The position numbers and the translations under genes were made by a program. This document shows, in pieces, positions 1 to 64,000 of a stretch of 64,000 nt of DNA. The notes under the pieces were generated by a model. That model made no database searches. It saw nothing but the letters and a program-made list of their open reading frames with translations, and was not told the origin of the DNA. Where the stretch lies: the IMG/VR virus record IMGVR_UViG_3300037067_014608; one strand, written 5' to 3'. The DNA comes from a virus (lineage: Duplodnaviria; Caudoviricetes). Position 1 is the stretch's first letter, and every line of letters starts with the position of its first letter.

Positions 1-37
1 AGGGGGTACGGGTAGGTACTAGGGAGGGGGTAGGGGG
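1..37 (+). other. G-run tract (potential G-quadruplex / terminal or packaging signal)
   Basis: AGGGGGTACGGGTAGGTACTAGGGAGGGGGTAGGGGG: five runs of 3 or more G in 37 nt. Confidence 0.4.
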
Positions 38-340
38 ATGTAATACATAGGTAATATTCGCATAATTACCCATTACGTGCAATAGGCGCTTACGCGCATG
101 TACGCGCAGATTACCCCCCACTTATTTTACTTTACTTATGTCCGTGCCGCAGTACCGGAACGTATTTTTTTGAGAGAGGTTCCCCGGGCGCTCGCCAATC
201 CGGGTGCGTAAAATTTTCCGCTGTTCTGGATCTCTGCGTAAATCGCTCTGATTATAGTTAACCTGTTTTAGTTAACTTAACTTACACATTTTGCGTACCG
301 TGTGCAGAGAGGCATGTAAAAAAGGGTGATTTTTTGTGAT

Positions 341-487
341 TTTTCAGAACCCGCGCGTGCGGGTTCGGAGATTTTTACTTTTTTCCATCCCTTAATTTTG
401 CTCATTTTTCAGAACCCGTGCGTGCGCGGGTTCGTAGATTTTTGGAAGTTCTAGTTTTCAGAACCCGCGTGCGCTCGGGTTCGTAGA
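341..487. repeat. Three direct repeats of palindromic TTTTCA-GAACCCG-N6-8-CGGGTTC-GKAGA
   Basis: Copies at 341-376, 406-443, 455-487; arms GAACCCG/CGGGTTC perfectly complementary. Confidence 0.9.
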
Positions 488-508
488 GAAGCGCGTTTTT
501 GGGAGGTT

Positions 509-28660: not shown

Positions 28661-28664
28661 CGTA

Positions 28665-28834
28665 TCCTCACCTGAAATATTGTATGACGTGTTACTGGCA
28701 CAACACATCTAATATATATACATTTACATTAGTCTTCTCTACCCTCTTTATTTATAAACCTTTCACCGAGAGTTAATTTTGGAAATAATCCAGAAATATC
28801 AGGTAGTACGTCGATAGGTATACCAAAGGTTAAT
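28665..28834 (-). repeat. Promoter/5'-UTR cassette copy A
   Basis: 3 substitutions vs copy D; BRE-TATA CGGTGAAAGGTTTATAAA, hairpin, RBS. Confidence 0.92.
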
Positions 28835-28844
28835 TTCTTTGCTC

Positions 28845-31547
28845 TCATATCGGCACCACGTTGGTTTGATAAATAATATTCCTGTGTTCATCCATCACGG
28901 TGAATGTTAGGTTATCGGTTGAACTATACGTATCATTGTAGTAGATTCCGAGTAGTATCGTTCCATTTGATTCGTTTCTGTATGTGTAGAAGTCTGTCGA
29001 GATTCCTGCTGTTGCATATACTGGTGTCTGTGTAAAGAACGTCTCAATATACTCAGTTTCAGACGGGTAATAATACCGCGTCTCGTTAATGCCATACGAT
29101 GGTGCATTATACCAAATCGAATATTTTGATGTTGGAACCATTACATACGTTATTGACCCGTCAGTACCGGTAATCCCGGACATGGTTGTATTTAGAACCG
29201 GTGTCGTTTCTAAATTAATACCGAATAAGATCGAGACCCAACTTACTGGTATTGATGATGAAATTGCATTCAGTGTAGTGTTCATTCCAGTAATTGCTTC
29301 CCCATTATAATTCTGGCAGACAAACCGTACAACTTTGGTTGTTACATATTGTGTTTGCGATGATGTTGATGTGGATGAAAGGTGCATTGTGACATTCTGG
29401 TTATGATCCATTATGTAATTCTCTGATAAACTTCCATATCCGGTTGCAGATGCACTAATCGCTACTACGCCATACGAATAATATCCAATATAGGTTCCGT
29501 TTGTTGTCGTTGTTGTATTACCCGTTGAATCGATTACTTTAACAACATTTATTGTGTCCCCGCTTTGATCGAGGAATTGGATTATTAAACGATATTGTGG
29601 AGTCAGTGATAGATCCTGTCGGTTTACACCGACAATGGTATTGATTAAATTGGATTTTGTTACTGTATCAGTCCCATATGGGTTAACCACCGTTAATGAT
29701 ACTGTATACAATCCTGATGAGTTATAAACATAAACCGGGTTCTGCTCGTTCGAATAATTACCATCTCCAAACGACCAGTTCCATGCCGTCGGATAATTCA
29801 TAGTTGTATCGTTAAATTGAACGGCTAATGGTGCTGCTCCTGCGGTTACATTAGAGGTATATGACGCTACGGGTGTCTGGCCTACAATATTGATATATCC
29901 CGATCTTGATAACGTATTATTCCCGTAAGTATTTGTTACTGTTAACGTTACTTTATATGACCCGAGTGCGTTATAAGTATAGGATGGGTTCTGTAAGGGA
30001 GATAACATTCCATCCCCAAACGACCAGTTCCACGACGTTGGGGAATTTGTTGACAGGTCTGTGAATTGTACGGTAGTTCCAATATCACCCGTTGTGGGTA
30101 TCGCTGAAAAGTTTGCTACAGGTAATGGCGAAGTTATTGTAATATACCCCACTTTTGTTGATGTGTTTGATCCATAGGCGTTTTCTACGGTCAGTATAAT
30201 TGTGTGAGAGCCGATTACATTGTATGTGTGGTTTGGATTCTGATCGTTTGAATAGTTACCGTCGCCGAATGTCCAGTTCCATGCTGTGGGGATATTTGTG
30301 GATGTGTCGGTGAACTGAACCAACGTTCCACTGTTTCCTGATCTTGGAGTTCCCGTAAAATTAGCAACGGGCGTTGGAGCTGCTGTCACCGTAATATAAC
30401 TTGTCTTTGTTACTGTATTTGAACCACCGGCATTTGTTGCGTTCAAGGTCACCGTATAAACACCGGCGTTCGTGTATGCACATATAGGATTTTGCTGGGT
30501 ACTCGTCCCTCCATCTCCAAATGCCCATTCCCATGACGAAGGTGTGTTTGTTGATGTGTCGGTAAATTGAACGTATAATGTGGCATACCCTGAAGTTGTA
30601 TTCGAAGTAAAATTCGCTACCGGTGCATTCATTGATACGTTAATAAATGTTACTTGCGTCGAGATATTCGAACCTCCTTCGTTGGTAGCATTTAATGTAA
30701 TTAAGAAATTACCTACTCCAAACGTTTGGGACGGATGTTGGGATGTACTAAATGAAACAGGGGTGTTATTTCCAGTCACGTTTGTAAAATTCCATATCCA
30801 CCCTGTTGGCGTATTCGTTGACGTGTCTGTGAATGTTGTCAAAACCGACATGTACCCGGTTGTTGGATCGGCTGTAAATGACGATACTGGCACGGGTTGC
30901 GCATAATCAAATGAAACGTATCCGCTTCCACCAGTACCTCCATTACCACCGATTGCTATTCCATCACCGGGTTCTGCTCCGGCAGCTCCCCCACCCCCAC
31001 CGGCCCCATATCCACCGGTTCCACCTGCTGCACCAAGGGTCGTTGCACCTGTACCACCAGTACCCACTGTGCTGCTTCCACCATTCGTACCATAATACGC
31101 AATTACTGTGCTCCCACCGTTTCCCCCTGATCCTGTATATCCAAATGCCGATGATGCTGTTCCGGAATAACCGCTTGATCCAAACCCGTGATTGCCAGTA
31201 CCCCCGGTTCCACCAATACCCGCCGTTATTTCATACGTAAATCCGCTGGATACTGCGACGGCACTTGCTGCTGATGTTGACCCTGCAAAACCACCGGCCC
31301 CGGCATTTTGGTTCTCGTCGCCGCCCCCACCGCCTCCGCCACCACCGGCTCCAACAACCACTAAATTGGTTATTTGAGATACACCTGTTGGAATTAAAAT
31401 CGAATCGTTTGAGGTGTAAATACACGTTACCGTATCCCCGGATTGTGTGCACCCTGCACTAACAATTCCGACAATGGATAAACTAACTAACAATAAGAGT
31501 AACCACTTATTCGCTGAAATACAATTACGATTACTCTTACCTTTCAA
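28845..31547 (-). CDS. 900-aa secreted protein: Gly-rich domain, ~5 PKD, shared C-terminal domain
   Basis: TTG start after GGTGAGG; ends IIYQTNVVPI; no TM anchor. Confidence 0.88.
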   Translation of the reverse strand: MKGKSNRNCISANKWLLLLLVSLSIVGIVSAGCTQSGDTVTCIYTSNDSILIPTGVSQITNLVVVGAGGGGGGGGGDENQNAGAGGFAGSTSAASAVAVSSGFTYEITAGIGGTGGTGNHGFGSSGYSGTASSAFGYTGSGGNGGSTVIAYYGTNGGSSTVGTGGTGATTLGAAGGTGGYGAGGGGGAAGAEPGDGIAIGGNGGTGGSGYVSFDYAQPVPVSSFTADPTTGYMSVLTTFTDTSTNTPTGWIWNFTNVTGNNTPVSFSTSQHPSQTFGVGNFLITLNATNEGGSNISTQVTFINVSMNAPVANFTSNTTSGYATLYVQFTDTSTNTPSSWEWAFGDGGTSTQQNPICAYTNAGVYTVTLNATNAGGSNTVTKTSYITVTAAPTPVANFTGTPRSGNSGTLVQFTDTSTNIPTAWNWTFGDGNYSNDQNPNHTYNVIGSHTIILTVENAYGSNTSTKVGYITITSPLPVANFSAIPTTGDIGTTVQFTDLSTNSPTSWNWSFGDGMLSPLQNPSYTYNALGSYKVTLTVTNTYGNNTLSRSGYINIVGQTPVASYTSNVTAGAAPLAVQFNDTTMNYPTAWNWSFGDGNYSNEQNPVYVYNSSGLYTVSLTVVNPYGTDTVTKSNLINTIVGVNRQDLSLTPQYRLIIQFLDQSGDTINVVKVIDSTGNTTTTTNGTYIGYYSYGVVAISASATGYGSLSENYIMDHNQNVTMHLSSTSTSSQTQYVTTKVVRFVCQNYNGEAITGMNTTLNAISSSIPVSWVSILFGINLETTPVLNTTMSGITGTDGSITYVMVPTSKYSIWYNAPSYGINETRYYYPSETEYIETFFTQTPVYATAGISTDFYTYRNESNGTILLGIYYNDTYSSTDNLTFTVMDEHRNIIYQTNVVPI

Positions 31548-31549
31548 TC

Positions 31550-31720
31550 TCCTCACCTGAAATATTGTATGACGTGTTACTGGCACAACACATCTAATAT
31601 ATATACATTTACATTAGTCTTCTCTACCCTCTTTATTTATAAACCTTTCACCGGCGTGTTTTTTATTGATTTGTTATGTTTCTGGCAGAGTACGTCGGTG
31701 GGTGTACCAAAGATTAATAT
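31550..31720 (-). repeat. Promoter/5'-UTR cassette copy B
   Basis: Identical to A/D from RBS to BRE; different ~35-nt spacer. Confidence 0.92.
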
Positions 31721-31728
31721 GCGTTGTG

Positions 31729-34700
31729 TTATGTTGGAGTCACCTTTGTCTGGTAGATTATTGTCTTGTTCTTATCCATTACGGTGAACGTCAGGTTGTC
31801 GGTTGAACTGTAGGTGTCGTTGTATAGTGCTCCGAGTGTGATTGTTCCGTTTGTTTGGTCTCTGTAGGTATAGAAATCAGTTGCAATACCCTGTTTTCCG
31901 TAGGTTACTGGTTGCGTGAAGAACGTCTCAACGTATTCGTTTTCCTGTGGGTAGTAATAACGGGTCTCGTTAATTCCCATCTCAACATCTTCAAAGTGAA
32001 TTGCATATTGGGATGTTGGAACCATTACGTATACGATTGAACCGTCTGTACCTGTTGATCCATTCATTGTTGTGTTCAGTAGGGGAGTTGTTCCTAAATT
32101 AATTCCGAATAAGGTGGTGACCCAACTTAATGGGATTGTTGAACCGACTGCGTATACTGTTGTGTTCATTCCTGCAATCGCTTCCCCATTGTAATTCTGG
32201 CAGACGAACCGCACGGTCTTTGTAACGACAAGTTGCGTTGCATTTGTGGATGTTGACGGGGACAGAGTAATATTTACAAGCCTGTTATAATCCATCGTAT
32301 ACGTTTGCGTGATACTGCCATATCCAGATGCGGAGGTTGTGATTGTAACCATTCCGTATGGATAATACCCAACAAAGGTTCCGTTTGAGGTTACTGTCGT
32401 ATTTCCTGCTGAGTCAAATACTGTTACGATTGGGATTACCCTGCCGCTTGGATCTGTAAACTTAGCAATTAACCTGAATTGTGGCGTTAAATTGAGATCC
32501 TGTCTGTTCTGGCCTACAACCGTTGTAATATAATTTATTCTTGTTGATGTGTTACTACCGTATGCATTTGTTGCCGTTAATGAGACTGTGAAGATTCCTG
32601 TCTTATTATACCAGTGAACTGGGCTCTGCTCGTTTGAATAATTGCCATCCCCAAACGACCAGTTCCAACTCGTCGGTAAATTATACGATTGATCGGTAAA
32701 CAGGATCGCAAATGGCGGTGCACCAACCGTAGTGTTTGCCACGAATTGTGCTATCGGGACTGGTGCTATGATATTGATATATCCTACTTTCGTGTTACTA
32801 TTACTTCCATAGGAATTTGTGGCATTCAATGATATTGTGAATAACCCTGCTACATTATACGTGTGATTTGGATTCTGTTCGTTTGAATAGTTACCGTCAC
32901 CAAATGACCAGTTCCATGAAGTCGGTGATACCGTTGACAGATCATTGAACTGGACGTTTGTTCCTAAATATCCGCTTCTTGGAGTCCCATTAAAGTTTGT
33001 ACCCGGTACTGGATATGATCCAACGTTGATGTAATTTGCTTTTATTGTCTTGTTCGAACCGTACTCGTTCGATACCGTTAACATTACCGTGTAATTACCC
33101 ATTGATGTATATATGTTAACCGGGTTTTGGGCTGTTGAATAGGTTCCATCTCCGAATGACCAGTTATAATTCGTTGGACTTCCTGTTGATGCATCGGTAA
33201 ATTCAACTGCCAGAGGTGGATATCCCGCCGTCTGGTTTGCACTAAATGCCGCCACGGGTAATTTTACACTCACTGTGATATAATTTGTTCTTGTTGCAGT
33301 ACTACTCCCGTATACGTTTGTCGCGATTAATCTTACTGTAAATACTCCAGCAACATTGTATGTGTGGTTTGGATTCTGATCGTTTGAATAGTTACCGTCG
33401 CCGAATGACCAGTTCCATACCGTTGGGCTTCCTGTCGATAAGTCCGTGAACTGGACGGTCATTCCGGTGTCACCTGATGTCGGTGAACCTACGAAGTTTG
33501 CGCTTGGTAGTGGCGTTGAACTGACGGTTATGTATCCATTCTTGATCGTGATGTTTGAACCGCCAGCGTTGTAAACGGTCTGTTTTACATTGTATACTCC
33601 GACGTTTGTATAGTTGTGGGATGGGTTCTGTAAGGTGCTCGTGTATCCATCTCCAAACTCCCAATACCAAGATGTTGCATTATGTGATGAATCTATAAAC
33701 TGAACTGATAATGGAGGATATCCCACTAAAGGTGTTGCACTAAATCCTCCAACCGGAGGTTGGACTGTCATATTGATGTAATCTACTTTTGTTGTTGTAA
33801 CACTACCGTATTGGTTTGTGGTGTTCAAACTGATACTGTAAACTCCTGCTACTATATATGTATGGTTCGGGTTCTGTAATTCTGAATAATTTCCATCTCC
33901 GAACGACCAGTTCCATGAAGTTGGTGTATTATTTGTGAGATCCGTGAATTGAACCATCGTATATATTGTTCCGTTTCTCGGAGTTGCTGAGAACTCTGCG
34001 TATGGGATTGGTGCCGGGTTTACACGGATATAATCTGTCTTGGTTTTTATACTATACCCATGTGAATTCGCTGCATCTAATGTTACGGTGAAGTTGCCAA
34101 TTGCGTTGTAAACGTGTACGGGGTTCTGCTCGTTCGAGTAGTTGCCATCTCCGAACGACCAGTTCCATTGAACTGGTGTGTTTGTGGACGTATCTGTGAA
34201 CTTCACGGCAAGCGCCTGATAACCTGACGTTACGTTACTGGTAAAATTTGCAACTGGCCCCGGTAATGACAATACGTTGATGTAATTAACATAGGTTGTT
34301 GCATTAAATCCACTGGCGTTTGTTACATTTAACGTAACGTTATAATACCCCGGGCCAACGAATGTGTAAACCGGGTTCTGTAATGTACTTACGTTATATG
34401 CACCGTTGCCAAACGTCCAATTCCATGTTGTTATATCCGTTACACTCGTATCCGTGAACTGGACGGTTAACATCTCATACCCGGTAGTTATATTTGCGGT
34501 GAAACTTGGTTTTGGTTTCACGATGATTGTGATGTAATCTGTTATCGTGGTTGAATTGGTGGCGTATGGATTGTTTGCATATTCTGTCACGGTGTAAGTT
34601 CCAGCAACAGTATATGTGTGAGTTCCGTTCTGGGTTGTACCGTTCTGCCATGTCCCGTCTCCGAACGACCAGTTCCATGACGTTGCGTTGTCTTTTGGAG

Positions 34701-37700
34701 CGGTTACATTAAACTTAATCGTGTATGGAGCTACACCAAACGTTGAGTTGGCTGTGAATCCCGAGATGGTTGTGTTATATACCGATATATAATTTGTCTT
34801 TGTCGAGATGTTTGAACCCCCGGCATTAGCAGTGTTTAATGAAACGGTGTAGTTCCCTCCTGACCAATAGGTGTGTGTAACGTTCCGCTCCGTACTATAC
34901 CCGCCATCTCCAAACAACCAATTCCACGAGGTTGCATTTCCGGATGAAGTGTCGTTGAACTGGACAGTCAATGGGAATAATCCAGAGGTTACGTTTGACG
35001 TGAAGTCTGATACTGGAGCTGGGACTACATTTGCCGTTATGTAATACGAGAGATTCGTCCAGTTCGTCCAATTAACTCCATTTACTGTAGAGAAGTTAAT
35101 GGTGTATCGTCCGGAAGATGTATATGTATATACCGGGTTCTGCTCGGTCGAGGTATTGCCATCGCCGAACATCCAGTAGTATCCGGTAACATTCGACCCT
35201 GACCCATTGAATTGAACTGCCACTGGCACTATTCCTGTGGTAACGTTGCTTGTGATATTTGATGAGGACTGGTTGTAAACTGTAATGTAATCGGTTCTTG
35301 ATGTTGTGTTTGAACCTCCAGCGTTTGTTGCTGTGAAGTTGACTGTGAATGTACCTCCTGTTCTGTAGATATGCGTTGCATTACGTATATTACTAAACGT
35401 GCCATCACCGAACGAGTAGTTATATGAGGTTACTGCCAACCCGTTTATCGTGTCTGAGAAGGTAACGGTTAACGGATACGTTCCACTTAATGGTGTTCCA
35501 TTGAACGCTGTGATCGGGATCTTTGGATTGATCGTAATGTAATTCGTTCTGGTCTTTGTGTTTGAACCATATGTGTTCGTTGCATTTAACCTAACGTTAA
35601 ATTTACCTATTACGTCATACGTGTGGGTTGGGCTCTGTTCGCTTGAATAGTTGCCATCGCCAAATGACCAGTTCCACTCAATCGGGGAGTTTGTTGACGT
35701 ATCGGTAAATGTTACTGTTGTTCCATTATATCCAGATAATGGATCTGCTGTGAAATTTGTGACCGGGACTGGTAGTTCAGCTACTACAATGTATCCGCTC
35801 TTGGTTATTTGATCTGATCCTCCTGAATTCGAGACCTTTAAGGTAATTGAATACGTTCCCGCTGATGCAAAGGTGTGTGTCGGGTTCTGTGCGTCTGAAT
35901 ACGATCCGTCATTGAATGTCCAGTTCCACCATGTCGGCACGTTTGTTGTTTGATCTGTGAACGATACGGTGAGTGGCGGATACCCTGCTGTCTGGTTTGC
36001 TCCGAAATCTGCTACTGGCGTATATGCTACTATTGAGACATAATTTGTTCTGGTCTTTGTATTGCTGCCATATCCGTTTGTTGCGTTTAATGAAATTGTA
36101 TACGTTCCGGGTGAGTTATACACATACGTTGGGTTCTGCTCATTCGAGTAGTTACCATCCCCGAACGACCAGTTCCATTGGTTCGGCAGGTTCGTTGAAT
36201 AATCAGTGAACGCAATTGTATCTCCAATTGTGGTGCTTGTCGGTGACGCGGTAAAGTTTGATTCTGGGATTGGTAATGTTGTGACGGTTATGTAATTCGT
36301 TCTTGTTGATGTGTTATATCCCACTACGTTAGTTGCATTATCTATTACCGTATACGTCCCGGGGTTAACGTATATGTGAACCGGGTTCTGCTCGGTTGAG
36401 TAATTTCCATCGCCGAACGACCAGTTCCATGAAATCGGGAATCCGATTGTCGCATCAACAAACTGGACTGCTAATGGCGGGTATCCGGATGTGCTGTTTG
36501 CACTGAAGTATGCTGTTGGCAACTGATCGTTGATATAGATATAATTTACTTTTGTTGTTTCATTATACCCATACGGATTGCTTGCATTTAATGTAACAGT
36601 GTAATTTCCACCCGCTGTATAGGTATGTGTGGTGTTTCTTGACTCCGAATAGTAACCATCTCCGAAACTCCAGTTCCATGCTGTCGGGTTGCGTGTGGAT
36701 AGATCATTGAACGTTACCGTTAATCCGACACTCCCACTTAATGGCGTCCCAACGAAGTTTACTATCGGTATCGGTGCTTGAGTTACAGAAATATATCCGT
36801 ATCTTGTCGAGGTGTTTGTCCAATACCCGTTTGTTGCTGAGAACGTAACCGTATAACTTCCGGGGTACTTGTATACATAGAGTGGGGATTGTACCTCTGA
36901 ATAGTTACCGTCTCCAAATGACCAGTTCCATGCCGTCGCATTTGTACTGTATCCTGTGAATTGAACCGCTAGTGGGTTATATCCGCTTGATATATTTGAT
37001 GTGAACCCGTTCGTTGTTTTATTGTATATCGTTATGTAATTTGTTTTCGTTGATACATTGGTCTCATGATAATTACTTGCGTATTCAGTAACATTGTATA
37101 CGCCACCTAATCCATAGACGTGTGTTGGACTCTGCACCGTTCCATTCTTCCACGTCCCGTCACCGAACGACCAGTTCCAGAAGGTCGCGTTATCGTTTGT
37201 ATTATTTACTGTGAATTTGATTGCTATCGGTTCAAACCCTGAAGTTACATTTGCGGTGAAACCTATTTGGGTTGAGTTGTAAACTGTGATGAAATAATCT
37301 CTTGTTGATAAGTTTGATCCTCCAGAGTTCGTTACATTTTCTATAACTGTATAACATCCTCCGTTTGCATAGGTATGTACCGGGTGCTGATTGTTACTGT
37401 ATTGACCGTCTCCGAACGACCAGTTCCACATGTAGATTGATCCGGCCCCCCCCGGAACTGTTGAATTGTCCATGAACGTTACTTCTAATGGGAATAATCC
37501 GCTTGTTGGAGTTGCATTGAACGCTGCTGATGGTAATGGCGCGGCAAAGGCTGTAATGTAATACGAGATGTTTGTCCAGTTTGTCCAGTGCCCGTTGCTT
37601 GTTGAGAAGTTTATATTATAGAGCCTGACATCCGAGAATATATGTACCGGGTTCTGTTCCGTAGAGGTATTGCCATCGCCAAACATCCAGTAATAGGATG

Positions 37701-43700: not shown

Positions 43701-46700
43701 ACAAACCCCCAGTTACATTCGCATTAAAGTCGGCTGTCGGGGTTGGGAGATAATATGCATTTATGTAATCAGTCAAATTCGTCCAGTTTGTCCAGTGCCC
43801 GTTGCTTGTTGAGAAATTGATTGTATATACTCCCACATCAGGATATATATAAATTGGTGATTGTTCATCTGAATAATTACCATCTCCGAACGACCAGTTC
43901 CAAATCGTTGCATTTTCTCCTGCCCCTGTAAACTGAACTGCTAATGAAGCGTATCCTGAAGTTACATTACTCGTGATATTTGAGGTTGTCTTGCTATATA
44001 TTGTAATATAATCAATAATTGTTGTAGTATTATTTGCATAAAGATTGTTCGAAATTTCAGTTACCGTATAAATTCCACCAGTACCATACAGGTGGGTTAC
44101 ATTTTGGGATGTGCCGTTCTGCCATATACCATCACCAAACGACCAGTTCCAGAAGGTCGCATTATCTTTTGGAGTGGTTACATTAAATTTAATTGCTGAC
44201 GGTTCTAAACCTGCGGTTATATTTGCTGTGAATCCTGTTACTGTTGTATTGTATACATTCACATATCCGCGTTTATAAGACAGCCCTCCGGAATTTATAA
44301 CAGATAAATTAACCGTAAAGTTTCCACCGGTGTTATATGTGTGCGTTGTGTTTCGGCTATCTGCATAGTTCCCGTCTCCGAAAGACCAGTTCCAATATAA
44401 TGCCTCTCCACCGGTTGTTGAATTATCAAGAAATTCTACAGTTACTGGGAATACTCCGCTTGTCACATTCTGTGTGAAATTAGCTACCGGGGCAACATCT
44501 GTAACATTAATATAATTTGTAAATGTCGTTGTATTTATAATACTGCTGTTTTGCCACATATACACAGTTAATGTGACATTCATTAATCCTTGTGTAGTAT
44601 ATTGGTGGACTGGTGATGATGAGTTTGTCGAATCTACTGCCCCATCACCGAAACTCCAGTTCCAACTATTTGGCATCGCGCCGTGCAGATACGAATCGTC
44701 TGTGAATTTGGCATATCCTCCTTTTTGGACGCTTGTTACATTTGAGGTGAAATTACTTGTCAGATTCCATTCTCCATACGTAAGATTAGTCCCAATGAAA
44801 TTATATATCGGATACGTCCATCCAATAGATCCGTTAATTAATCTACCATATGTGAAAAATGGCGAGTCTTGCGTGTCGTTTGCAGAGTAGTTGTAGTATA
44901 TCATATTCCAATCTACTACACTTGTTCTTGTTGTACCCGGAGCGAAACCTCCCGTTCTTGTAACGTTGAACTGAATTACACCGGTATTATTATCAATACT
45001 TGAACTTACCAGTTGAATATTATTATATGTTGTGCGGTTTGGTACAACTGCCGTCGCTCTTAAGTATAATGGATTAAATGTGATTGAACCTGCAATATAT
45101 GTTGCATTATTAACATTCTGTATTTGGAGTGTTCGGTTGCGACTACCTGTTGTTAAATTATTAATATATGCGACCGGGTATGCTGCCGGATCGGTCTTAA
45201 ACCTAAATGTCGAGTTCAGATTAATATCCGGATATAATGGATATAAATTGCCTTTATATGCATCATATGGTGTGGTGAAGTTGGCCTTCCATCGTGAAGT
45301 TCCATTACTAATACGGAATTCACTTACATATCCAGACCATTTTTCAGAAGAACCGGGGCCGAGATATCCAATCTGTGTTGTCGCATTGTACACATCAAAA
45401 TTACCGCCCATTCCAATCTTTTTTGCATTTAACATACCATTGATATATACATTAATTACACCGTTGTCTCTTTCGACAACAACATGTGACCATTGATTAT
45501 CAGGTATTGCAAATAAGGGTGTTATATTTGCAGTTGTACCCATGTAAAATGCATAGTGATTTGCATTACCATCGGTATTTATCAATCCCCATCCGTTGCT
45601 TAATGATTGGTTAGCTCTTGTGACTAACGGGGCAAGTGGTGTGTGTCCTGTTGGGTATGCCCATAACTCAATTGTAAAGTCATTTGCACTGAAGTTCAAT
45701 GTTGCATAGGATTGGCGGTAAATACTTGATCCTTCAGCAGTAAAGTCACCAACCCCATTTCCGAATTTTGTTGGACTTGCACCAATTGTGGCATTATTAA
45801 CTGTCCATGTTAATCCCGTTAAATCTTGGAATGGAGTGAGTGACTGGTTCATGTGCATCCATGAAACCACACCAGAATCTACATCTGATGTCAGATTAAT
45901 AAAATCGTTTTTAGTTATATCACCTGACTGGTATGATGCATTTGTAACAGATAGTTGAACCGTATATCTTCCTGCAACTGCATATGTATACACAGGATTT
46001 TTCGCAGAACTGTTTGTACCATTATACCATCTTCCATCACCGAAACTCCAGTTCCAATATATTGGATTGCCTGATGAGGAATCGTTGAATTGGACTACCA
46101 TTGGGTATGTATTAGATATTGTGTTATTTGCTTTGAAATTGGCAACTACGGTTGTTGGTGTGAGGAATTGGACTATAACTACACCGGAACCTCCTGCTCC
46201 GCTGGAAAAGAATCCTCCATAACTACCACCCCCACCCCCACCTGTATTTGCTATTCCATTTGTTGGAGCGGTTGTTGAATTAAATGCTCCTGCACCTCCT
46301 CCACCAAGTCCTCCTCTTGATGCAGCAAACGCTCGACCTCCTCCTCCTCCACCTGCGTAATAAATTTGACTTCCGTTAATTGTGTATACTGTACCGTTAG
46401 CTCCAAGTGCAGTTGTTGCCGTTTCTCCTTTTCCACCACCGCCGCCACCATCGTTTGGTGATTGGAATGCTGCACCTGCATTACCCTGACCTGTTGTTCC
46501 TGTACCTGCCGTACCTGAGCTGTATCCCCCACCCCCACCAGAACCTCCGGGTTGCCCGTTTGAACTAACTCCACCAGCACCACCGCCACCACCACCTCTC
46601 GCTTGGATGCCATCTAATAGAGTTGTATTGGCAAATGATGAATTACCACCGTTTGCTCCTATTGATGGAGAACTGCTTGAAACACCACCAGATCCTACAA

Positions 46701-49700
46701 CTACATTAAGGTCTGTTCCTGCTGTCACTGCGTAATCTAAACCGTAAAGTACACCTCCAGCTCCTCCTCCACCCGCACCTGAATATGAAGTTAAACTATT
46801 ACCTCCAGCACCTCCTCCTGCAACCACTAAATAATTAACACTTGTAATCCCACCCATTACCGTCCATGTTGTACCCCCTGTGGCATTCCACATGATATCG
46901 GTCATTGTATCATTATAACTAGTCCAATATCCATTCTCGTTGTATTCCCACGGCGTGAAGAAGGCGGGATTAAATGATACATTGATCAATGTAGCGTTTG
47001 TTGTACTGTTTTCACCTGCACTAGTTATTGCTGTTAAAGTCACTGACCAGTTACCAATCGGGAACGGGTATGTTACATTTTGTAATGTACTAATTGTTAC
47101 TGGGGTGTTATTTCCAGTTACATTTGTTATGTTCCATACCCACGATGTTGGGTAATTTGTTGAGGTATCATTTAACAGGACATAATATGGGGCATATCCA
47201 CTTGTATTATTTATCGTGAACGATACGATTGGTATTTGTGGTGGAACGGGAGTATATTGGATTATGACAATACCTGATCCGCCCCCTGTTCCTTGTGGAT
47301 TTAAGTATTCATAGTCTCCACCTCCACCTCCTCCTCCACCGGTTCCCGGCACACCGGGATCTGTTGGGTTATGTGAATTTGTGTATGGCCCCCATCCCCC
47401 TGCTGCACCGCCGCCGAGTCCACCTTGTGCTTGAGTTGATGATGGTGTATTACCAGCTCCACCACCTGCATAATAAGTCAAAGTTCCGGTTATTGCTGAC
47501 TGTCTTCCAATACCTCCTGTAGAATTGACCGCAGATGCACCGGCACCACCCCCACCCCCATCTGGATAACCATTATTACCTTGACCTGCTACCCCAATAC
47601 CTCCTGCACCACCACGACCGCCTCCGCCTCCAGATCCTCCGTTGTGACCTGCTAACGCACTGCCACCGGCCATGTTATAGGCACCGGCACCCCCTCCTTT
47701 TGCATTAATACCATTCCCCACGGTTGTATTTGCAAATGACGAGTTACTTCCATCAGTCCCGTAGTTATTGTAATATCCGCCAGCTCCACCACTACCGACT
47801 GCGATAATTACATTTGTTCCCGGACTAACCGTGTAATTGCCTGTGAGCATACCCCCAGCTCCACCGCCACCACCACGGTTTCCACCACCCCCACCTCCTC
47901 CTGCAACTACAAGGTAATTCACTTCCGTAATTCTATCCGGGATTGTCCATGTTATTTTACCTGTGGCATTCCACATTACATTGATCATGGTATCATTATA
48001 ACTAGTCCAACACCCATTACTATATACCCACTGTGAGAAAAATTTTGGATCGCGGGTTACATTTATGAAATAACTAGTTGTATTTGACCCCACGATATTT
48101 GATGTGTTTAATTGGACTGACCAGTTACCAATATCAAATATCATGGTTGTGTTTTGTGAAGTGCTGATAGTAATTGGAGTGTTGTTTCCAGTTACATTTG
48201 TTATATTCCATTCCCATGATGTGGGATAATTTGTTGATGTATCATTAAAAACAACATATAATGGCGCATATCCGCCAGTAGCATTAGTACTTGAGAAGTT
48301 AGCAACCGGGGCTGGTGCTCGCGCAGAAGTATTAATCCATATTGGTGTAGAAATATTGCTTCCTGCCACGTTTGTGACATTAAGAGATATACTAAAATTA
48401 CCTATACCAAATATTTGTGTGATATTTTGTGAAATACTGAACGTCACTGGTGTATTATTACCTGTTACATTTGTAAAATTCCATTCCCAAGAGGTTGGAT
48501 TATTTTCTGACGTGTCGTTAAACTGAATGGTTATTGGAGCGTATCCCTCCGTGTTGTTAGTGGTGAACGATACGATTGGTATTTCCGGAGTATATTGAAG
48601 TATAACGATACCAGATCCACCCGCAGATCCTTGTGGGGTTACGTATTGATAGTCTCCTCCTGCACCACCACCTCCACCAGTTCCCGGCACACCGGGAGAG
48701 GTCGGGTTGATCTCTCCATTAATTCCATACGCCCCCGAAGCACCCCCTCCAAGCCCACCGGCATATGGGACTGCACTTTTCCGGAGACTCGCTCCACCAC
48801 CAGCGTAATATGTGTCAACTCCCGTTATCGATGATGTTCTCCCATTACCTCCGGGGCCGATACCTACACTAGCCGCACCTGCACCACCACCAGACCCACC
48901 AAATCCCGCAGATCCACTACCATTGTTGCCCTGTCCGGGCACTCCTAACCCTCCTGTGCCCCCACGTGCACCGCCTCCACCAGATCCCCCGTTGTGACCA
49001 CTCGATGCCCCGCCAGCGGCGTTGTTAAATCCACCCCCCCCACCACCTTTCGCATTAACTCCATCCCCCACGGTTGTATTTGCAAATGACGAGTTACTTC
49101 CATCAATTCCGTAATTATTGTAATATCCGCCAGCTCCACCACTACCGACTGCGATAATTACATTTGTTCCCGGACTAACCGTGTAATTGCCTGTGAGCAT
49201 ACCCCCAGCTCCACCGCCACCACCACGGTTTCCACCACCCCCACCTCCTCCTGCAACTACTAAATAATTTACATTCGTAATTCTATCTGGTATTGTCCAT
49301 GACGTTTTACCTGTGGCATTCCACATTACATTGATCACGGTATCATTATAACTAGTCCAGCACCCGTTACTATAAACCCACGGTGAAAATATTAAAGATG
49401 GATTAAAAGACACATTTACGAATTGTGATCCGTTTGTAATATTAGGTCTACCATAATTTATTGCTGTTAATGTCACTGACCAATTTCCTATTGGGAATAT
49501 GTATGTTATATTTTGTGATGTGCTGATTGTGATTGGAGTGTTGTTTCCAGTTACATTTGTTATATTCCATATCCATCTTATTGGTGTATTCGTTGACGTA
49601 TCATTTAACTGTACCGCTAATGGATAATATCCCGAGGTTACATTGTTTGTAAATGAAGATACTGGAGTTTCAATTGCATCGTTATTAAATTGGATAATAA

Positions 49701-50589
49701 CAACCCCCGATCCTCCCATTTTTCCTCCAAGACCGTGATTAGTACCTGCTCCGCCACCTCCACCTGTTCCATTTATACCGGCAGTCGCGTCATACCCGGG
49801 AGTATTGGAACCTCCCCCATTACCTCCACCCCCAATACCACCCACTCCTCCAGCGGAAGAGGAATAATCACGGCTTCCTCCACCACCGCCACCAGAATAA
49901 GGTATATTCTCTCCTGTGATCGACGAGTATATTCCATTCCCTCCATTGCCCCCAACCCATGAGGAGACATCCGATCCTTTTCCTGATGCTCCCCCCCCAC
50001 CGGCACCACCCCCATTACCTCCATTAGTATTACCTCCTGCATATCCTTCTACGGGCGAATAATTACCGATATTCCCAGTTCCCCCCGATAGGGTTGAGGA
50101 TGCTGCTCCCCCAGCTCCACCACCAGAACCACCTGTTCCTCCATTGCTACTATAACCCCCATATCCCCCACCCGTTGCAGTAATGGTGTGGAATGTCGAG
50201 TTTTGACCGTTATACTTCAACCCTCCAACCGTTTGTAAAGCCCCACCTGCACCTACAGAAATATTAACCGTTCCAGATACCTCAAGGGATGTCCCATTAA
50301 GGAACCCCCCCCCACCGCCACCACCTCCGACGCTGTATCCTCCCGATCCTCCCCCTCCAACCACTAAATATTCTACTGTGGTAACACCAGCAGGAATATT
50401 CCACGTCGTGTTGCCAGTGGCATTCCACATTATATATGTATTATTACCATTTATTGCTGTCCAGCATCCATTTGTAGGTATCCACGTTATTGCAGATACC
50501 GGTATTATTATTAAAGTAATTAAAATTAAAAAGAGCGCCAGAAGTATTAATATACCTCTAATATCTCTGCGATCCTCCCCACTCTTCAA
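31729..50589 (-). CDS. 6286-aa giant secreted adhesin-like glycoprotein: 4 Gly-rich domains, 2x LamG + cohesin-like, ~49 PKD, shared C-terminal domain
   Basis: Uninterrupted 18.9-kb ORF; signal peptide; PKD motifs counted by eye; ends IIYQTKVTPT. Confidence 0.92.
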   Translation of the reverse strand: MKSGEDRRDIRGILILLALFLILITLIIIPVSAITWIPTNGCWTAINGNNTYIMWNATGNTTWNIPAGVTTVEYLVVGGGGSGGYSVGGGGGGGGFLNGTSLEVSGTVNISVGAGGALQTVGGLKYNGQNSTFHTITATGGGYGGYSSNGGTGGSGGGAGGAASSTLSGGTGNIGNYSPVEGYAGGNTNGGNGGGAGGGGASGKGSDVSSWVGGNGGNGIYSSITGENIPYSGGGGGGSRDYSSSAGGVGGIGGGGNGGGSNTPGYDATAGINGTGGGGGAGTNHGLGGKMGGSGVVIIQFNNDAIETPVSSFTNNVTSGYYPLAVQLNDTSTNTPIRWIWNITNVTGNNTPITISTSQNITYIFPIGNWSVTLTAINYGRPNITNGSQFVNVSFNPSLIFSPWVYSNGCWTSYNDTVINVMWNATGKTSWTIPDRITNVNYLVVAGGGGGGGNRGGGGGAGGMLTGNYTVSPGTNVIIAVGSGGAGGYYNNYGIDGSNSSFANTTVGDGVNAKGGGGGGFNNAAGGASSGHNGGSGGGGARGGTGGLGVPGQGNNGSGSAGFGGSGGGAGAASVGIGPGGNGRTSSITGVDTYYAGGGASLRKSAVPYAGGLGGGASGAYGINGEINPTSPGVPGTGGGGGAGGDYQYVTPQGSAGGSGIVILQYTPEIPIVSFTTNNTEGYAPITIQFNDTSENNPTSWEWNFTNVTGNNTPVTFSISQNITQIFGIGNFSISLNVTNVAGSNISTPIWINTSARAPAPVANFSSTNATGGYAPLYVVFNDTSTNYPTSWEWNITNVTGNNTPITISTSQNTTMIFDIGNWSVQLNTSNIVGSNTTSYFINVTRDPKFFSQWVYSNGCWTSYNDTMINVMWNATGKITWTIPDRITEVNYLVVAGGGGGGGNRGGGGGAGGMLTGNYTVSPGTNVIIAVGSGGAGGYYNNYGTDGSNSSFANTTVGNGINAKGGGAGAYNMAGGSALAGHNGGSGGGGGRGGAGGIGVAGQGNNGYPDGGGGGAGASAVNSTGGIGRQSAITGTLTYYAGGGAGNTPSSTQAQGGLGGGAAGGWGPYTNSHNPTDPGVPGTGGGGGGGGDYEYLNPQGTGGGSGIVIIQYTPVPPQIPIVSFTINNTSGYAPYYVLLNDTSTNYPTSWVWNITNVTGNNTPVTISTLQNVTYPFPIGNWSVTLTAITSAGENSTTNATLINVSFNPAFFTPWEYNENGYWTSYNDTMTDIMWNATGGTTWTVMGGITSVNYLVVAGGGAGGNSLTSYSGAGGGGAGGVLYGLDYAVTAGTDLNVVVGSGGVSSSSPSIGANGGNSSFANTTLLDGIQARGGGGGGAGGVSSNGQPGGSGGGGGYSSGTAGTGTTGQGNAGAAFQSPNDGGGGGGKGETATTALGANGTVYTINGSQIYYAGGGGGGRAFAASRGGLGGGGAGAFNSTTAPTNGIANTGGGGGGSYGGFFSSGAGGSGVVIVQFLTPTTVVANFKANNTISNTYPMVVQFNDSSSGNPIYWNWSFGDGRWYNGTNSSAKNPVYTYAVAGRYTVQLSVTNASYQSGDITKNDFINLTSDVDSGVVSWMHMNQSLTPFQDLTGLTWTVNNATIGASPTKFGNGVGDFTAEGSSIYRQSYATLNFSANDFTIELWAYPTGHTPLAPLVTRANQSLSNGWGLINTDGNANHYAFYMGTTANITPLFAIPDNQWSHVVVERDNGVINVYINGMLNAKKIGMGGNFDVYNATTQIGYLGPGSSEKWSGYVSEFRISNGTSRWKANFTTPYDAYKGNLYPLYPDINLNSTFRFKTDPAAYPVAYINNLTTGSRNRTLQIQNVNNATYIAGSITFNPLYLRATAVVPNRTTYNNIQLVSSSIDNNTGVIQFNVTRTGGFAPGTTRTSVVDWNMIYYNYSANDTQDSPFFTYGRLINGSIGWTYPIYNFIGTNLTYGEWNLTSNFTSNVTSVQKGGYAKFTDDSYLHGAMPNSWNWSFGDGAVDSTNSSSPVHQYTTQGLMNVTLTVYMWQNSSIINTTTFTNYINVTDVAPVANFTQNVTSGVFPVTVEFLDNSTTGGEALYWNWSFGDGNYADSRNTTHTYNTGGNFTVNLSVINSGGLSYKRGYVNVYNTTVTGFTANITAGLEPSAIKFNVTTPKDNATFWNWSFGDGIWQNGTSQNVTHLYGTGGIYTVTEISNNLYANNTTTIIDYITIYSKTTSNITSNVTSGYASLAVQFTGAGENATIWNWSFGDGNYSDEQSPIYIYPDVGVYTINFSTSNGHWTNWTNLTDYINAYYLPTPTADFNANVTGGLFPLVVGFIDASTGIEINYWNYSFGDGQYSDEQNPVHIYASGGTYTVIQTVANAGSSNTSTRTNYIIVDNSTVVGFEANVTDGLAPMAVKFNVTLPHDNATFWNWSFGDGAWQNGTTQNVTHVYGNGGLYTVTEYASNPNATNIVTYSDYISVHNRTISGFSGNKTFGLFPLAVSFNVTIPNDNATMWNWSFGDGNFQNSTELQNASYVYGNGGRYTVTLTTSNTYASNTTTLTNYIEVYNSTVTGFTANVTEGSFPLTVMFNVTTPIDNATSWNWSFGDGDYANTQNATHTYNVAGNYTVSETANNTHATNTTTIVDYIQIYTGVPVVDFTSNKTTASTYPMVVQFNDSSAGAPSMWNWSFGDGRWYNGTNISAKNPVYTYAVAGSYDVSLWASNNGGANSTNKTGYITLQSDVDSYVFSWMHMGTTDDYAFQDHGGLTWVVSNATINSTHGYFGNGSGDFTGYQAYLGNTLPVALLNSKNFTVEGWVYPLSVSAGSQIISNAPNASYRSGWGLINPSGTENGYVFYMGNSSVNSTSAFTIPNNQWTHVVIERKIGTIYVYINGQLVTTKTGLGGTFDTSSTVSIGYMPYGGATSQFNGHLQETRMSIGFAPIAARWNANFTTPYSMYRGELMPLYPDINPDSTLKFDLPVISIANQTNGGVTYRTINIKNVTNATYVVGSTSYDAKHGYVSTVIPNTSYYNNIQVVSYTVDKVNGIVLFNLTRPGGFSAGTNDISIADIPVLYWNYTDAPNYTSIYNYGYLINGTTHITYPFNYFDDRVTIIEPWVLIPNFTVNATRVYINSYVSVTDDSSSYGAYPNIWNWSWGDGNFTNGTAKTVIFKYTVPGVYDLYDNISIWQNRSVFNVTNKTITVLNDPPIIDFTSNVTYGAYPLAVNFTDSSSGVELAWNWSFGDGNYADTRNSTHIYNAGGKYSVTYNVTNDGGFNKTTKINYITVYNQTLTGFTANKTSGIFPFTARFNVTTPKDNATWWNWSFGDGLWQNGTSQNVTHTYGTSGVYTVTEYASNPYWTNSTTLTDYITVNAQTVSGFSANNTVGLFPLAVQFNTTVVDDNGTYWNWSFDGGKVWLNASTQNVSYVFGNGGTYTIIRTVQNPLGGYNQTILTDYITVYNRTTSGFIGTPRTGVFPLTVQFNTSVVNDNGTMWNYSFDGGYTWQNTSAQNTSHTFASGGNYTIYRSVQNTHGGYNLTILPDYITIYNRTSSIFVSNVTEGYIPLAVNFTGSGSNATRYNWSFGDGTYSDLQTPEHVYEVLGNYTINFSASNDYWTNWTNVTEYIHAYSVPIPATEFNGTPTEGLYPLGVQFVDMSNAPLVQSWNWSFGDGQYSNMQNASHIYYTGGSYTVSLNITNIGGSNTNTKNYYITVYNKTTSKITSNVTTGNAPLTVQFTGVHTNGTIFYWLFGDGSNATILNPVHTYVDVGNYTVNFSVSNGHWTNWTNWTDYIRAALVPAPNTNFTSNVTTGLFPTAIQFTDTTTGEDLLQWNWSFGDDTYSTNKNPIHIYTRGGNFTVSLIATNRGGDTTLTVPDYITIYNTTSSGFSANTTTAGTYPLAVQFNTTVVNDNGTTWNWSFNGGVDWDNESTQNITHIFDSGGSFTIIRVVQNEHGGYSATTRTNYITVYNQTTSNFTSNATSGLVPLAIQFNGSGTNGSLYLWIFGDGYTSSEQNPVHTYRDVGTFSVNFSVTNPYYTNWTNVSDYITANAIEPPITNFTNLTPLSGINPVTITFIEDSTGYTIESWNWSFGDGNWQNGTTHNATHTYRSGGNYTVSLTTTNLGGSNTSTKVDYVTIYNQTTSNFYANTTFGVFPLTVQFNSSVINDNGTMWNWSFGDGNYADTQNATHTYNTGSNYTITRIVQNEHGGYSSTTKYQYVDVKNQTRTGFTANITDGLYPLTVMFNVTTPKDNATSWNWSFGDGNYANTQNATHTYMTGGNFTVSQTARSLFTTNTTTVSDFITVYNHTTSTFTSNETEGYAPLAIQFNGYGQNSSSYYWMFGDGNTSTEQNPVHIFSDVRLYNINFSTSNGHWTNWTNISYYITAFAAPLPSAAFNATPTSGLFPLEVTFMDNSTVPGGAGSIYMWNWSFGDGQYSNNQHPVHTYANGGCYTVIENVTNSGGSNLSTRDYFITVYNSTQIGFTANVTSGFEPIAIKFTVNNTNDNATFWNWSFGDGTWKNGTVQSPTHVYGLGGVYNVTEYASNYHETNVSTKTNYITIYNKTTNGFTSNISSGYNPLAVQFTGYSTNATAWNWSFGDGNYSEVQSPLYVYKYPGSYTVTFSATNGYWTNTSTRYGYISVTQAPIPIVNFVGTPLSGSVGLTVTFNDLSTRNPTAWNWSFGDGYYSESRNTTHTYTAGGNYTVTLNASNPYGYNETTKVNYIYINDQLPTAYFSANSTSGYPPLAVQFVDATIGFPISWNWSFGDGNYSTEQNPVHIYVNPGTYTVIDNATNVVGYNTSTRTNYITVTTLPIPESNFTASPTSTTIGDTIAFTDYSTNLPNQWNWSFGDGNYSNEQNPTYVYNSPGTYTISLNATNGYGSNTKTRTNYVSIVAYTPVADFGANQTAGYPPLTVSFTDQTTNVPTWWNWTFNDGSYSDAQNPTHTFASAGTYSITLKVSNSGGSDQITKSGYIVVAELPVPVTNFTADPLSGYNGTTVTFTDTSTNSPIEWNWSFGDGNYSSEQSPTHTYDVIGKFNVRLNATNTYGSNTKTRTNYITINPKIPITAFNGTPLSGTYPLTVTFSDTINGLAVTSYNYSFGDGTFSNIRNATHIYRTGGTFTVNFTATNAGGSNTTSRTDYITVYNQSSSNITSNVTTGIVPVAVQFNGSGSNVTGYYWMFGDGNTSTEQNPVYTYTSSGRYTINFSTVNGVNWTNWTNLSYYITANVVPAPVSDFTSNVTSGLFPLTVQFNDTSSGNATSWNWLFGDGGYSTERNVTHTYWSGGNYTVSLNTANAGGSNISTKTNYISVYNTTISGFTANSTFGVAPYTIKFNVTAPKDNATSWNWSFGDGTWQNGTTQNGTHTYTVAGTYTVTEYANNPYATNSTTITDYITIIVKPKPSFTANITTGYEMLTVQFTDTSVTDITTWNWTFGNGAYNVSTLQNPVYTFVGPGYYNVTLNVTNASGFNATTYVNYINVLSLPGPVANFTSNVTSGYQALAVKFTDTSTNTPVQWNWSFGDGNYSNEQNPVHVYNAIGNFTVTLDAANSHGYSIKTKTDYIRVNPAPIPYAEFSATPRNGTIYTMVQFTDLTNNTPTSWNWSFGDGNYSELQNPNHTYIVAGVYSISLNTTNQYGSVTTTKVDYINMTVQPPVGGFSATPLVGYPPLSVQFIDSSHNATSWYWEFGDGYTSTLQNPSHNYTNVGVYNVKQTVYNAGGSNITIKNGYITVSSTPLPSANFVGSPTSGDTGMTVQFTDLSTGSPTVWNWSFGDGNYSNDQNPNHTYNVAGVFTVRLIATNVYGSSTATRTNYITVSVKLPVAAFSANQTAGYPPLAVEFTDASTGSPTNYNWSFGDGTYSTAQNPVNIYTSMGNYTVMLTVSNEYGSNKTIKANYINVGSYPVPGTNFNGTPRSGYLGTNVQFNDLSTVSPTSWNWSFGDGNYSNEQNPNHTYNVAGLFTISLNATNSYGSNSNTKVGYINIIAPVPIAQFVANTTVGAPPFAILFTDQSYNLPTSWNWSFGDGNYSNEQSPVHWYNKTGIFTVSLTATNAYGSNTSTRINYITTVVGQNRQDLNLTPQFRLIAKFTDPSGRVIPIVTVFDSAGNTTVTSNGTFVGYYPYGMVTITTSASGYGSITQTYTMDYNRLVNITLSPSTSTNATQLVVTKTVRFVCQNYNGEAIAGMNTTVYAVGSTIPLSWVTTLFGINLGTTPLLNTTMNGSTGTDGSIVYVMVPTSQYAIHFEDVEMGINETRYYYPQENEYVETFFTQPVTYGKQGIATDFYTYRDQTNGTITLGALYNDTYSSTDNLTFTVMDKNKTIIYQTKVTPT
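47716..49260. repeat. Near-identical 195-bp intragenic duplication (47716-47910 vs 49066-49260)
   Basis: 3 mismatches, offset 1350 bp; N-terminal half of Gly-rich domains 2 and 3. Confidence 0.85.
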
Positions 50590-50593
50590 CGCA

Positions 50594-50773
50594 TCCCCAC
50601 CTAAATATTTATAACCTACACTGCTGGATCAGTATAGATCTATTATATATACATTTACATTACATTAGTCTTGTACAACGTCCTTATTAATAAACCTTTC
50701 ACCGAAATGTATTTTATTAAATTATAAAAAAAGATTTGGTAGTACGACGATGGGTATACCAAAGGTTAATATC
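50594..50773 (-). repeat. Promoter/5'-UTR cassette copy C (diverged)
   Basis: Conserved BRE-TATA, AAGACTAATG, upstream motif; compensatory hairpin. Confidence 0.85.
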
Positions 50774-53021: not shown

Positions 53022-53495
53022 TTATGAGAGCGATTCTTCTTCAGCATACCTCATATACATAATTATTGAATACGCAACTGCGGTACTGATTAACATTACA
53101 CTGATCTGTAACCAGCCTGCTACCAGCCAGAAGATCGCTCCCCAAATCGCTACGAATACTATATTAAACCGTAGTCTCAATCTTCCACTGATATATGCAT
53201 ATATACAAATTATACTACATGCAAACCCATTGTAGATAAACCCAGCTACCGGATCTCCATTTGCTGCACCCATCGGGTTCCAGTGCCATTGGCTGTCGTC
53301 GATATGAATGTAATTTGTTTCATTTATTGGATTGGCAAATAACGTTGAGTTGCCACTAACTGTCCAATAATAGTACGCTCCTTGTTCGTAAGGTACTGTA
53401 TATGAAAGATTTGCTGTCGATGCTGCTGCTCCTGTTACCATTAGCATTAAGCTGCTTATCAATACCCCCATTAAAATAAGTCTTTTTGTTATCAT
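53022..53495 (-). CDS. Putative shared membrane anchor: signal peptide, short beta-rich ectodomain, ~3 TM
   Basis: GAAA|STANLSYTVPYEQGAYYYWTVSG; ATGA overlap with 2629-aa gene. Confidence 0.8.
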   Translation of the reverse strand: MITKRLILMGVLISSLMLMVTGAAASTANLSYTVPYEQGAYYYWTVSGNSTLFANPINETNYIHIDDSQWHWNPMGAANGDPVAGFIYNGFACSIICIYAYISGRLRLRFNIVFVAIWGAIFWLVAGWLQISVMLISTAVAYSIIMYMRYAEEESLS

Positions 53496-61381: not shown

Positions 61382-61558
61382 TCCTCACCTGAAATATTGT
61401 ATGACGTGTTACTGGCACAACACATCTAATATATATACATTTACATTAGTCTTCTCTACCCTCTTTATTTATAAACCTTTCACCGAGAGATAATTTTGGA
61501 AATAATCCAGAAATATCAGGTATTACGTCGATAGGTGTACCAAAGGTTAATATCTTAG
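61382..61558 (-). repeat. Promoter/5'-UTR cassette copy D
   Basis: Near-identical to copy A 33 kb away. Confidence 0.92.
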
Positions 61559-63688: not shown

Positions 63689-64000
63689 TCACGTACCACT
63701 CATTCTCGCTTGAACCATATCTGGTTGGAACCCTGTTGATGTCCCCGTAATATTATACCACATATTATTTGTGAGGTAATCAAACCGATAATACCCTGCA
63801 ATGTTTGTCGTTTTTGATGCGGTATAATTTGTTGACGTGTTAACTATTGTTACCGTTGCATCACCTAATGGTGTGGTATATAATTTGTTGTACACTATCC
63901 CGTTAAGACAGATCCCTAAACATACCGAGTCCGATGGAATCATTGTAATATTATAAGGTATTATTTTAGCGGTCTCCGGAGTGAGGTTTGTATATGACGT
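63689..64000 (-). CDS. Partial gene (5' end beyond window); C-terminal carboxypeptidase-regulatory-like beta domain
   Basis: Frame open to 64000; G.V......PL..ATV......T...GYY.F..L....Y.I.....GF. Confidence 0.65.
   Translation of the reverse strand, partial: TSYTNLTPETAKIIPYNITMIPSDSVCLGICLNGIVYNKLYTTPLGDATVTIVNTSTNYTASKTTNIAGYYRFDYLTNNMWYNITGTSTGFQPDMVQARMSGT

Follow-up and report, generated by a model that had tools for sequence, protein, structure and literature searches.

Short stem-loops in viral mRNAs, placed near the ribosome-binding site (RBS), recognised by the identity of their loop and carried on covarying stems, are known from the operators of the MS2 and PP7 coat proteins and of T4 gp43 and RegA, and in such translational operators one factor can control several genes. 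The nut sites of phage lambda also rely on a loop-defined hairpin (boxB, with the N protein), which occurs in a leader and after a cistron and heads long transcription units. A third group, the repetitive extragenic palindrome (REP)-type and intercistronic stabilisers together with methanogen 5'-untranslated region (5'-UTR) elements, comprises stable extragenic hairpins, located between cistrons or at transcript ends, that can set the stability of mRNA segments (PMC5378194, PMC5499594). In the traits just named, each of these groups resembles a hairpin with an NNCCAG loop that we analysed in a 64,000-nt stretch of DNA, IMG/VR record IMGVR_UViG_3300037067_014608 (this whole stretch is called the window below). 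The window belongs to a large element found in metagenomes from landfill and groundwater, and the hairpin, which stands upstream of the RBSs of surface-protein genes, is probably a real, undescribed candidate for a regulatory RNA signal.

Within the window the hairpin belongs to a promoter and leader unit of about 115 nt on the minus strand, present in four copies, each ahead of one giant gene with PKD repeats (genes A to D). The unit runs from a box resembling a B recognition element and TATA box (BRE/TATA-like box) through an invariant 19-mer, the hairpin, a 13-nt A/U-rich spacer and a Shine-Dalgarno (SD) sequence to the start codon. Hairpin copies A (28686-28709), B (31571-31594) and D (61403-61426) have the same sequence, GAUGUGUUG-UGCCAG-UAACACGUC, with 9 bp of which 2 are G-U pairs; copy C (50613-50640) reads GAUCUAUACUG-AUCCAG-CAGUGUAGGUU and forms 11 bp, 3 of them G-U. 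The initial annotation had described 8-bp stems, AUGUGUUG-UGCCAG-UAACACGU for A, B and D (28687-28708 in A; we place the other two at 31572-31593 and 61404-61425) and CUAUACUG-AUCCAG-CAGUGUAG for C (50616-50637). Its sequences, positions and strand were all confirmed, and so was the pairing, although these 8 bp turned out to be the core of longer stems. No difference separates A, B and D across the whole unit; they therefore amount to one observation, and only two independent sequences exist within the window.

These two sequences differ at 11 of the 16 core stem positions, yet all eight pairs are kept (four through double changes, three through single ones), and the loop retains its CCAG. The probability that eight of eight pairs survive 11 random substitutions lies between 0.00035 (unbiased) and 0.007 (80% transitions). 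Nine of the 11 changes are transitions, a bias which, judging from the two sequences, is that of a G-C to G-U to A-U route on which RNA pairing would be retained at each step. The leaders of A and C fold in the sense orientation with -9.8 kcal/mol (z -2.75) and -12.8 kcal/mol (z -4.24), respectively, and the hairpin is the centroid structure of both, whereas the complementary strands reach -4.6 and -5.4 kcal/mol with other pairings; since the stems contain G-U pairs, the fold is specific to the sense strand. A covarying hairpin that folds on the mRNA strand, as had been proposed, is thus what we found, and a third stem variant (copy F, below) strengthens the motif. Across the three distinct stems (A, C and F), 27 of 27 pair cells are standard and both bases have changed in eight of nine pairs; when the 3' partner is shifted by 1-3 columns, pairing falls to 30-48%. 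Their 32 stem pairs include six G-U pairs and not one A-C mismatch. The loop is also far more frequent than chance would have it: five hairpins of 8 bp or more carry NNCCAG as their loop in the window (0.11 expected), and in 102.6 kb of non-redundant element DNA this loop closes 5 of the 27 hexaloop hairpins of at least 9 bp on the sense strand (about 0.1 expected) and 0 of the 43 on the other.

Copy F lies about 6 kb past window position 64000, in other assemblies of the same element (L051:3919-3948, equal to L056:13706-13735). It reads GUAUGGGUUAAA-UGCCAG-UUUAAUCCAUAC, with 12 pairs of which one is G-U; the loop is the same as in A and the stem is unrelated to that of A or C. The sense strand folds with -14.6 kcal/mol (z -6.47), the antisense fold being weak or different. 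The 5' arm doubles as the end of the coding sequence, stop codon included, of a gene for a 263-aa Q-rich protein, and 46 nt separate the hairpin from the next ATG, with a strong SD between them. This ATG opens the gene of an 87-aa membrane protein, which heads a block of CarboxypepD_reg-like proteins and one further PKD protein. Being intercistronic and without a BRE/TATA consensus in front, copy F almost certainly lies within a transcript, and it is not tied to a promoter. L057, a syntenic relative with a giant protein of 37% identity, has the counterparts of the genes that flank F 6 nt apart, with no hairpin, and its upstream protein has the same end (S-M-G); the 5' arm of F was thus coding sequence already present, to which the loop and the 3' arm were added.

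The hairpins might also have no function, a small palindromic insertion or foldback duplication having spread with the duplicated promoter unit and arisen again at F. A, B and D are plain duplicates, F looks as if the neighbouring gene end had been copied in inverted form around TGCCAG, and relatives lack the motif. We nevertheless consider this account unlikely, because neither chance nor neutral decay yields six G-U pairs with no A-C mismatch, full pairing after 69% stem divergence, or one loop on three stems.

Each of the five copies precedes a strong SD and heads genes whose products are secreted or membrane proteins. In A to D the 8-bp stem ends 13 nt before AGGUGAGGA or AGGUGGGGA in four of four copies, and in F the distance is 29 nt; the constant spacing to the RBS that had been noted earlier (as 14 nt) thus holds among A to D and is no general rule. 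Operators of the MS2/PP7 type differ from this in that they contain or abut the SD or the start codon, and phage translational operators at large have unrelated loop sequences, the host here being archaeal to all appearances. Lambda boxB has a 5-bp stem, a GNRA-like pentaloop (GAAAA or GAAGA) and an accompanying boxA, whereas our hairpins have 6-nt UGCCAG or AUCCAG loops and no boxA. The arginine-rich N-like protein that goes with boxB and binds Nus/Spt5 would have to be sought among ORFs that nearly all have no family match. Stabiliser hairpins act via the stability of their stem and need no fixed loop, while here the loop is fixed; REPs have conserved stems and a GTAG-type head, while here the stems vary, with no sequence common to all, and the loop is fixed. 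The sequences that follow the hairpins (CAUACAAUAUUUC, GUUAUAAAUAUUU and CCAAAAUCAUAAAUUUAUUU) lack the run of at least five U that marks an archaeal intrinsic terminator or attenuator. The arms, which a dimeric operator would keep, are those that differ at 11 of 16 positions between A and C and are unrelated in F, with CCAG invariant. Finally, a kink-turn bound by L7Ae has tandem sheared G-A pairs around a 3-nt bulge; the helices here run uninterrupted and contain neither. As the loop type, the inclusion of the SD, the following U-run and the conserved arms of these systems are all missing, we class the hairpin as a variant of the loop-defined mRNA hairpins and as a member of no named family.

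A loop that stays fixed while the stems are replaced makes recognition via the loop the most likely way in which the signal is read. Considering also the restriction to the sense strand, the proximity to the SD and the placement behind a promoter-like box in some copies and between cistrons in another, we favour, tentatively, a loop-recognised mRNA stem-loop through which a trans-acting factor co-regulates the translation and/or the stability of surface-protein transcripts. The motif would be a sense-strand RNA stem-loop with a stem of 8-13 bp of free sequence and a hexaloop N-N-C-C-A-G, although UGCCAG may also fold as a U-G-closed GCCA tetraloop. We infer that the region is transcribed; each surface-protein expression unit, namely the four giant PKD genes and the unit beyond the window that starts with the 87-aa membrane protein, would then be headed by the hairpin as part of the mRNA, 13-29 nt before its SD. 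A factor encoded by the element or by its host would bind the loop and thereby set translation initiation and/or transcript stability of all these mRNAs together. Control of translation had been one of two roles suggested in the initial annotation, and control of translation or stability through a loop-binding factor is plausible on the present sequences.

The same positions could be served by a hairpin that is a passive structural element, giving end protection or a processing boundary with no loop-specific factor, the shared loop reflecting common origin. Such an element would shield A to D as a 5' hairpin against a 5'-3' exonuclease and act at F as a 3' or intercistronic boundary. In A to D a stable stem is indeed found near the predicted 5' end, and at F exactly at the end of a cistron; moreover, regulation via 5'-UTR processing and stability is known for methanogen mRNAs (PMC5378194, PMC5499594). 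What a passive stem leaves unexplained is a CCAG that does not change although 11 of 16 stem bases do, and likewise an unrelated stem at F that carries exactly UGCCAG. We therefore give this version a smaller chance and regard it as rather unlikely.

The promoter side of the unit bears on where the transcripts would begin. The BRE/TATA-like box reads CGGTGAAAGGTTTATAAATAA in the units of A (28748-28768), B (31633-31653) and D (61465-61485) and TTTATTAATAA in that of C (50684-50704), on the minus strand like all other parts of the unit. It resembles other promoter-like boxes of the element and its relatives and would be the promoter, from which we infer a transcription start site (TSS) near 28728, upstream of the hairpin. 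The 19-mer between TATA box and hairpin, TAATGTAAATGTATATATA (28713-28731, 31598-31616, 50644-50662 and 61430-61448), may begin the leader or serve as a second TATA-like element, as it contains a TATA-like stretch, TGTATATATA, conserved equally to the first box. Should this second stretch set the TSS, the inverted repeat would straddle the TSS and could serve a dimeric repressor as its DNA operator. Archaeal operators are commonly built as inverted repeats with a 6-bp spacer, those of the NrpR type among them, and the 19-mer holding the second stretch is invariant in four of four units. However, variable arms around a conserved spacer are the reverse of the operator pattern, copy F has no promoter, and the upstream box fits the promoter-like consensus of the element much better, all of which makes an operator highly improbable. 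On the other side of the hairpin, the SD sequence is AGGTGAGGA in A (28665-28673), B (31550-31558) and D (61382-61390), and AGGTGGGGA in C (50594-50602).

Each of the four units opens with another conserved box of about 30 nt, TTAACCTTTGGTAYACCYAYCGWCGTA, on the minus strand, immediately behind the upstream gene's stop codon (28795-28835, 31680-31720, 50730-50765 and 61515-61555); read on the plus strand it resembles a mirrored BRE/TATA. Gene callers place an open reading frame (ORF) of 39-44 aa across this box and the TATA box, which is probably spurious because neither frame nor length is kept between units. Among the differences listed between the contigs of four runs and window positions 28400-31800, none changes hairpins A or B; changes do occur nearby.

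The other role that had been put forward for the hairpin was antitermination on transcripts of up to 19 kb: a nut-like site would recruit a processive antitermination or elongation complex with which RNA polymerase completes the giant genes. The placement is like that of lambda nutL and nutR, in that leader sites occur alongside one that follows a cistron, and the genes are extremely long. Lambda nut sites, however, have terminators to override, while genes A to D are purged of oligo-T. Runs of at least five T on the sense strand number 1, 0, 4 and 2 in A, B, C and D, against 7.9, 3.0, 15.8 and 9.4 expected from codon shuffles, and runs of at least six T are absent from all four against 0.8-4.0 expected from the same shuffles. 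The small-gene region (509-23169) shows no such depletion, with 19 runs of at least five T against 11.7 expected. Termination signals have thus been removed instead of overridden, which weakens the proposal. Besides, no boxA-like partner is conserved next to F, and a literature search found no archaeal RNA-based (processive) antitermination system, so that we consider a nut-like site very unlikely.

That strand specificity cannot separate RNA from one DNA strand, because all genes lie on one strand, leaves room for a site acting at the DNA level, as a single-stranded DNA (ssDNA) hairpin or a cruciform on which a protein of the element would act, whether a nuclease, nickase, recombinase or replication-priming protein. 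HUH-type enzymes recognise ssDNA hairpins in which G-T wobbles are tolerated, and the PKD genes act as cassettes. In two runs (landfill X5 and groundwater X2), contigs lack 2891 nt, position 28839 being followed by 7 other letters and then by 31731; this is a form of the element without gene B and one regulatory unit, which fits either recombination between the repeated units or the state before duplication. The joint of this cassette, however, lies at stop codons, about 130 nt off the hairpins, and recombination between repeated units explains it. In the DNA examined, about half of the element, neither a recombinase nor a Rep gene turned up. As to the TnpA/RAYT gene that goes with REP or IS200/IS605 end hairpins, a PHROG scan of 72 window ORFs had one weak transposase match, unlinked to the hairpins, and a relative carries an IS605 OrfB. 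With every copy in sense orientation just upstream of an SD, and a G-U asymmetry that argues for one strand, a DNA-level site strikes us as quite unlikely.

Rfam 15 gave 0 matches at the gathering score in the whole window, and permissive thresholds around A and C returned only unrelated families with E>5; the suggestion of a new RNA candidate therefore stands in the sense that no curated RNA family matched. A covariance model (R1) run over 165 kb, as the initial annotation had advised, recovered all five known copies and none beyond them. A relaxed hairpin search allowing one mismatch produced noise only, and exact-pattern scans with two invariant parts of the unit over genome contigs, IMG/VR and JGI metagenome contigs yielded chance matches only. 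Protein-based IMG/VR scans with two proteins of the element found nothing. In other assemblies of the element (L043, L048, L049, L051, L052 and L056) the hairpins are identical, and therefore add no variation. Relatives with a similar gene layout were found in L053, L057, L061 and the contig of P0025.

Several observations weigh against a loop-read RNA signal. The NNCCAG hairpin is absent from three related elements (L053, L057 and L061), so that conservation beyond this lineage cannot be claimed, and all the evidence comes from one element and three independent sequences, A, B and D being recent duplicates. Between A and C the stem has diverged 3-5 times as much as its flanks (8 of 58 positions differ upstream, 14%, and 17 of 87 downstream, 20%), which fits replacement of the hairpin as a unit equally well as stepwise compensation. 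Copy F was found by a search that requires pairing, and its pairing is hence not independent evidence; its existence is, since chance would not be expected to place a 12-bp stem around precisely TGCCAG. The spacing from stem to SD is not the same in F as in A to D, and the second TATA-like stretch, if it were the sole promoter, would start transcription of A to D inside the hairpin. Finally, no candidate RNA-binding protein was found, in a gene set where nearly all ORFs have no family match.

A direct contact between loop and ribosome can be set aside as a common function. The loop and closing pairs of copy C (50621-50632) include UGAUCCAGC, a 9-nt perfect complement of GCUGGAUCA at the archaeal 16S 3' end (four genomes), an rRNA segment that belongs to helix 45. 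The UGCCAG copies match only CCAG(U), and pairing with the 16S 3' end was rejected.

The genes behind the units, all on the minus strand, are giants. Gene A (23192-28660; 1822 aa, TTG start) has a signal peptide and PKD and Laminin_G_3 repeats. Gene B (28845-31547; 900 aa, TTG start) combines a Gly-rich domain with PKD repeats, and gene C (31729-50589; 6286 aa, TTG start) has a signal peptide homologous to that of A. Gene D (53492-61381; 2629 aa, ATG start) carries PKD repeats and a Gly-rich domain. The Pfam scan covered A, B and D and found PKD repeats in all three. The N-termini of both A and B are signal-peptide-like, and public annotation has the same TTG starts for these two genes and the same model of gene A. 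Proteins homologous to the N-terminus of gene A show about 45% identity to it, and none has its signal peptide. Gene B and a 707-aa PKD gene at 61562-63685 have in common a non-PKD C-terminal tail of about 290 aa with 60% identity (28845-29700 and 61562-62400), distant copies of which occur in other metagenomic proteins. Inside gene C and antisense to it, the plus strand has a perfect 8-bp palindrome, TCCATTAT-ATCCAG-ATAATGGA (35722-35743), whose loop is that of copy C, here carried by the other strand; by chance, one window should hold about 0.1 hairpins of this kind.

The contigs that carry the element reach 216,809 bp, and the analysis covered about half of that length. About 75 tightly packed genes fill the window, every one of them with the minus strand as coding strand and almost all without Pfam or PHROG match; the window has 0 tRNAs and hardly any tandem repeats. 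The SD sequences are complementary to the archaeal 16S 3' end ...GGATCACCTCCT (read from four genomes), and homologues of the PKD proteins bear names from Methanoregula and Methanospirillum. Together with the promoter-like boxes, these clues point to a large (up to about 217 kb), uncultivated archaeal virus-like or extrachromosomal element. Within the otherwise tightly packed one-strand array, window positions 1-508 and L044:10355-12679 form a stretch of about 2.3 kb without called genes, where the opposite strand carries a hairpin of 7 bp with the loop AUCCAG (L054:1589-1608). A 2605-aa protein (L056:5026-12843), encoded upstream of the surface-protein block, has no Pfam match and a C-terminal part rich in Y-P-x-x repeats, and a 1980-aa homologue with 37% identity is encoded by the syntenic relative, which comes from another assembly (L057:10001-15943). 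Searches of GenBank phages with tblastn gave no match for the 2605-aa protein and only distant bacterial-phage matches for the AAA ATPase.

To our knowledge, next to no cis-regulatory RNA signals have been described for archaeal viruses or large archaeal extrachromosomal elements, and we know of no account of how such elements express secreted proteins of 2,000-6,000 residues. If the hairpin were only a stabiliser, it would be an ordinary feature of a poorly known genome. A loop-defined hairpin that marks all surface-protein units of one element would, on the other hand, offer a concrete handle on this question; it predicts a loop-specific binding factor, and the motif supplies a covariance model with which new archaeal elements can be scanned. 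The boldest reading, for which we see only a slim chance, is that the hairpin forms the RNA half of an element-encoded nut- or operator-like switch, in which a loop-specific protein on nascent transcripts would control RNA polymerase processivity or coupled translation for genes of up to 19 kb. Such a switch, if true, would be the first RNA-recruited control of elongation or late genes described for an archaeal virus-like element.

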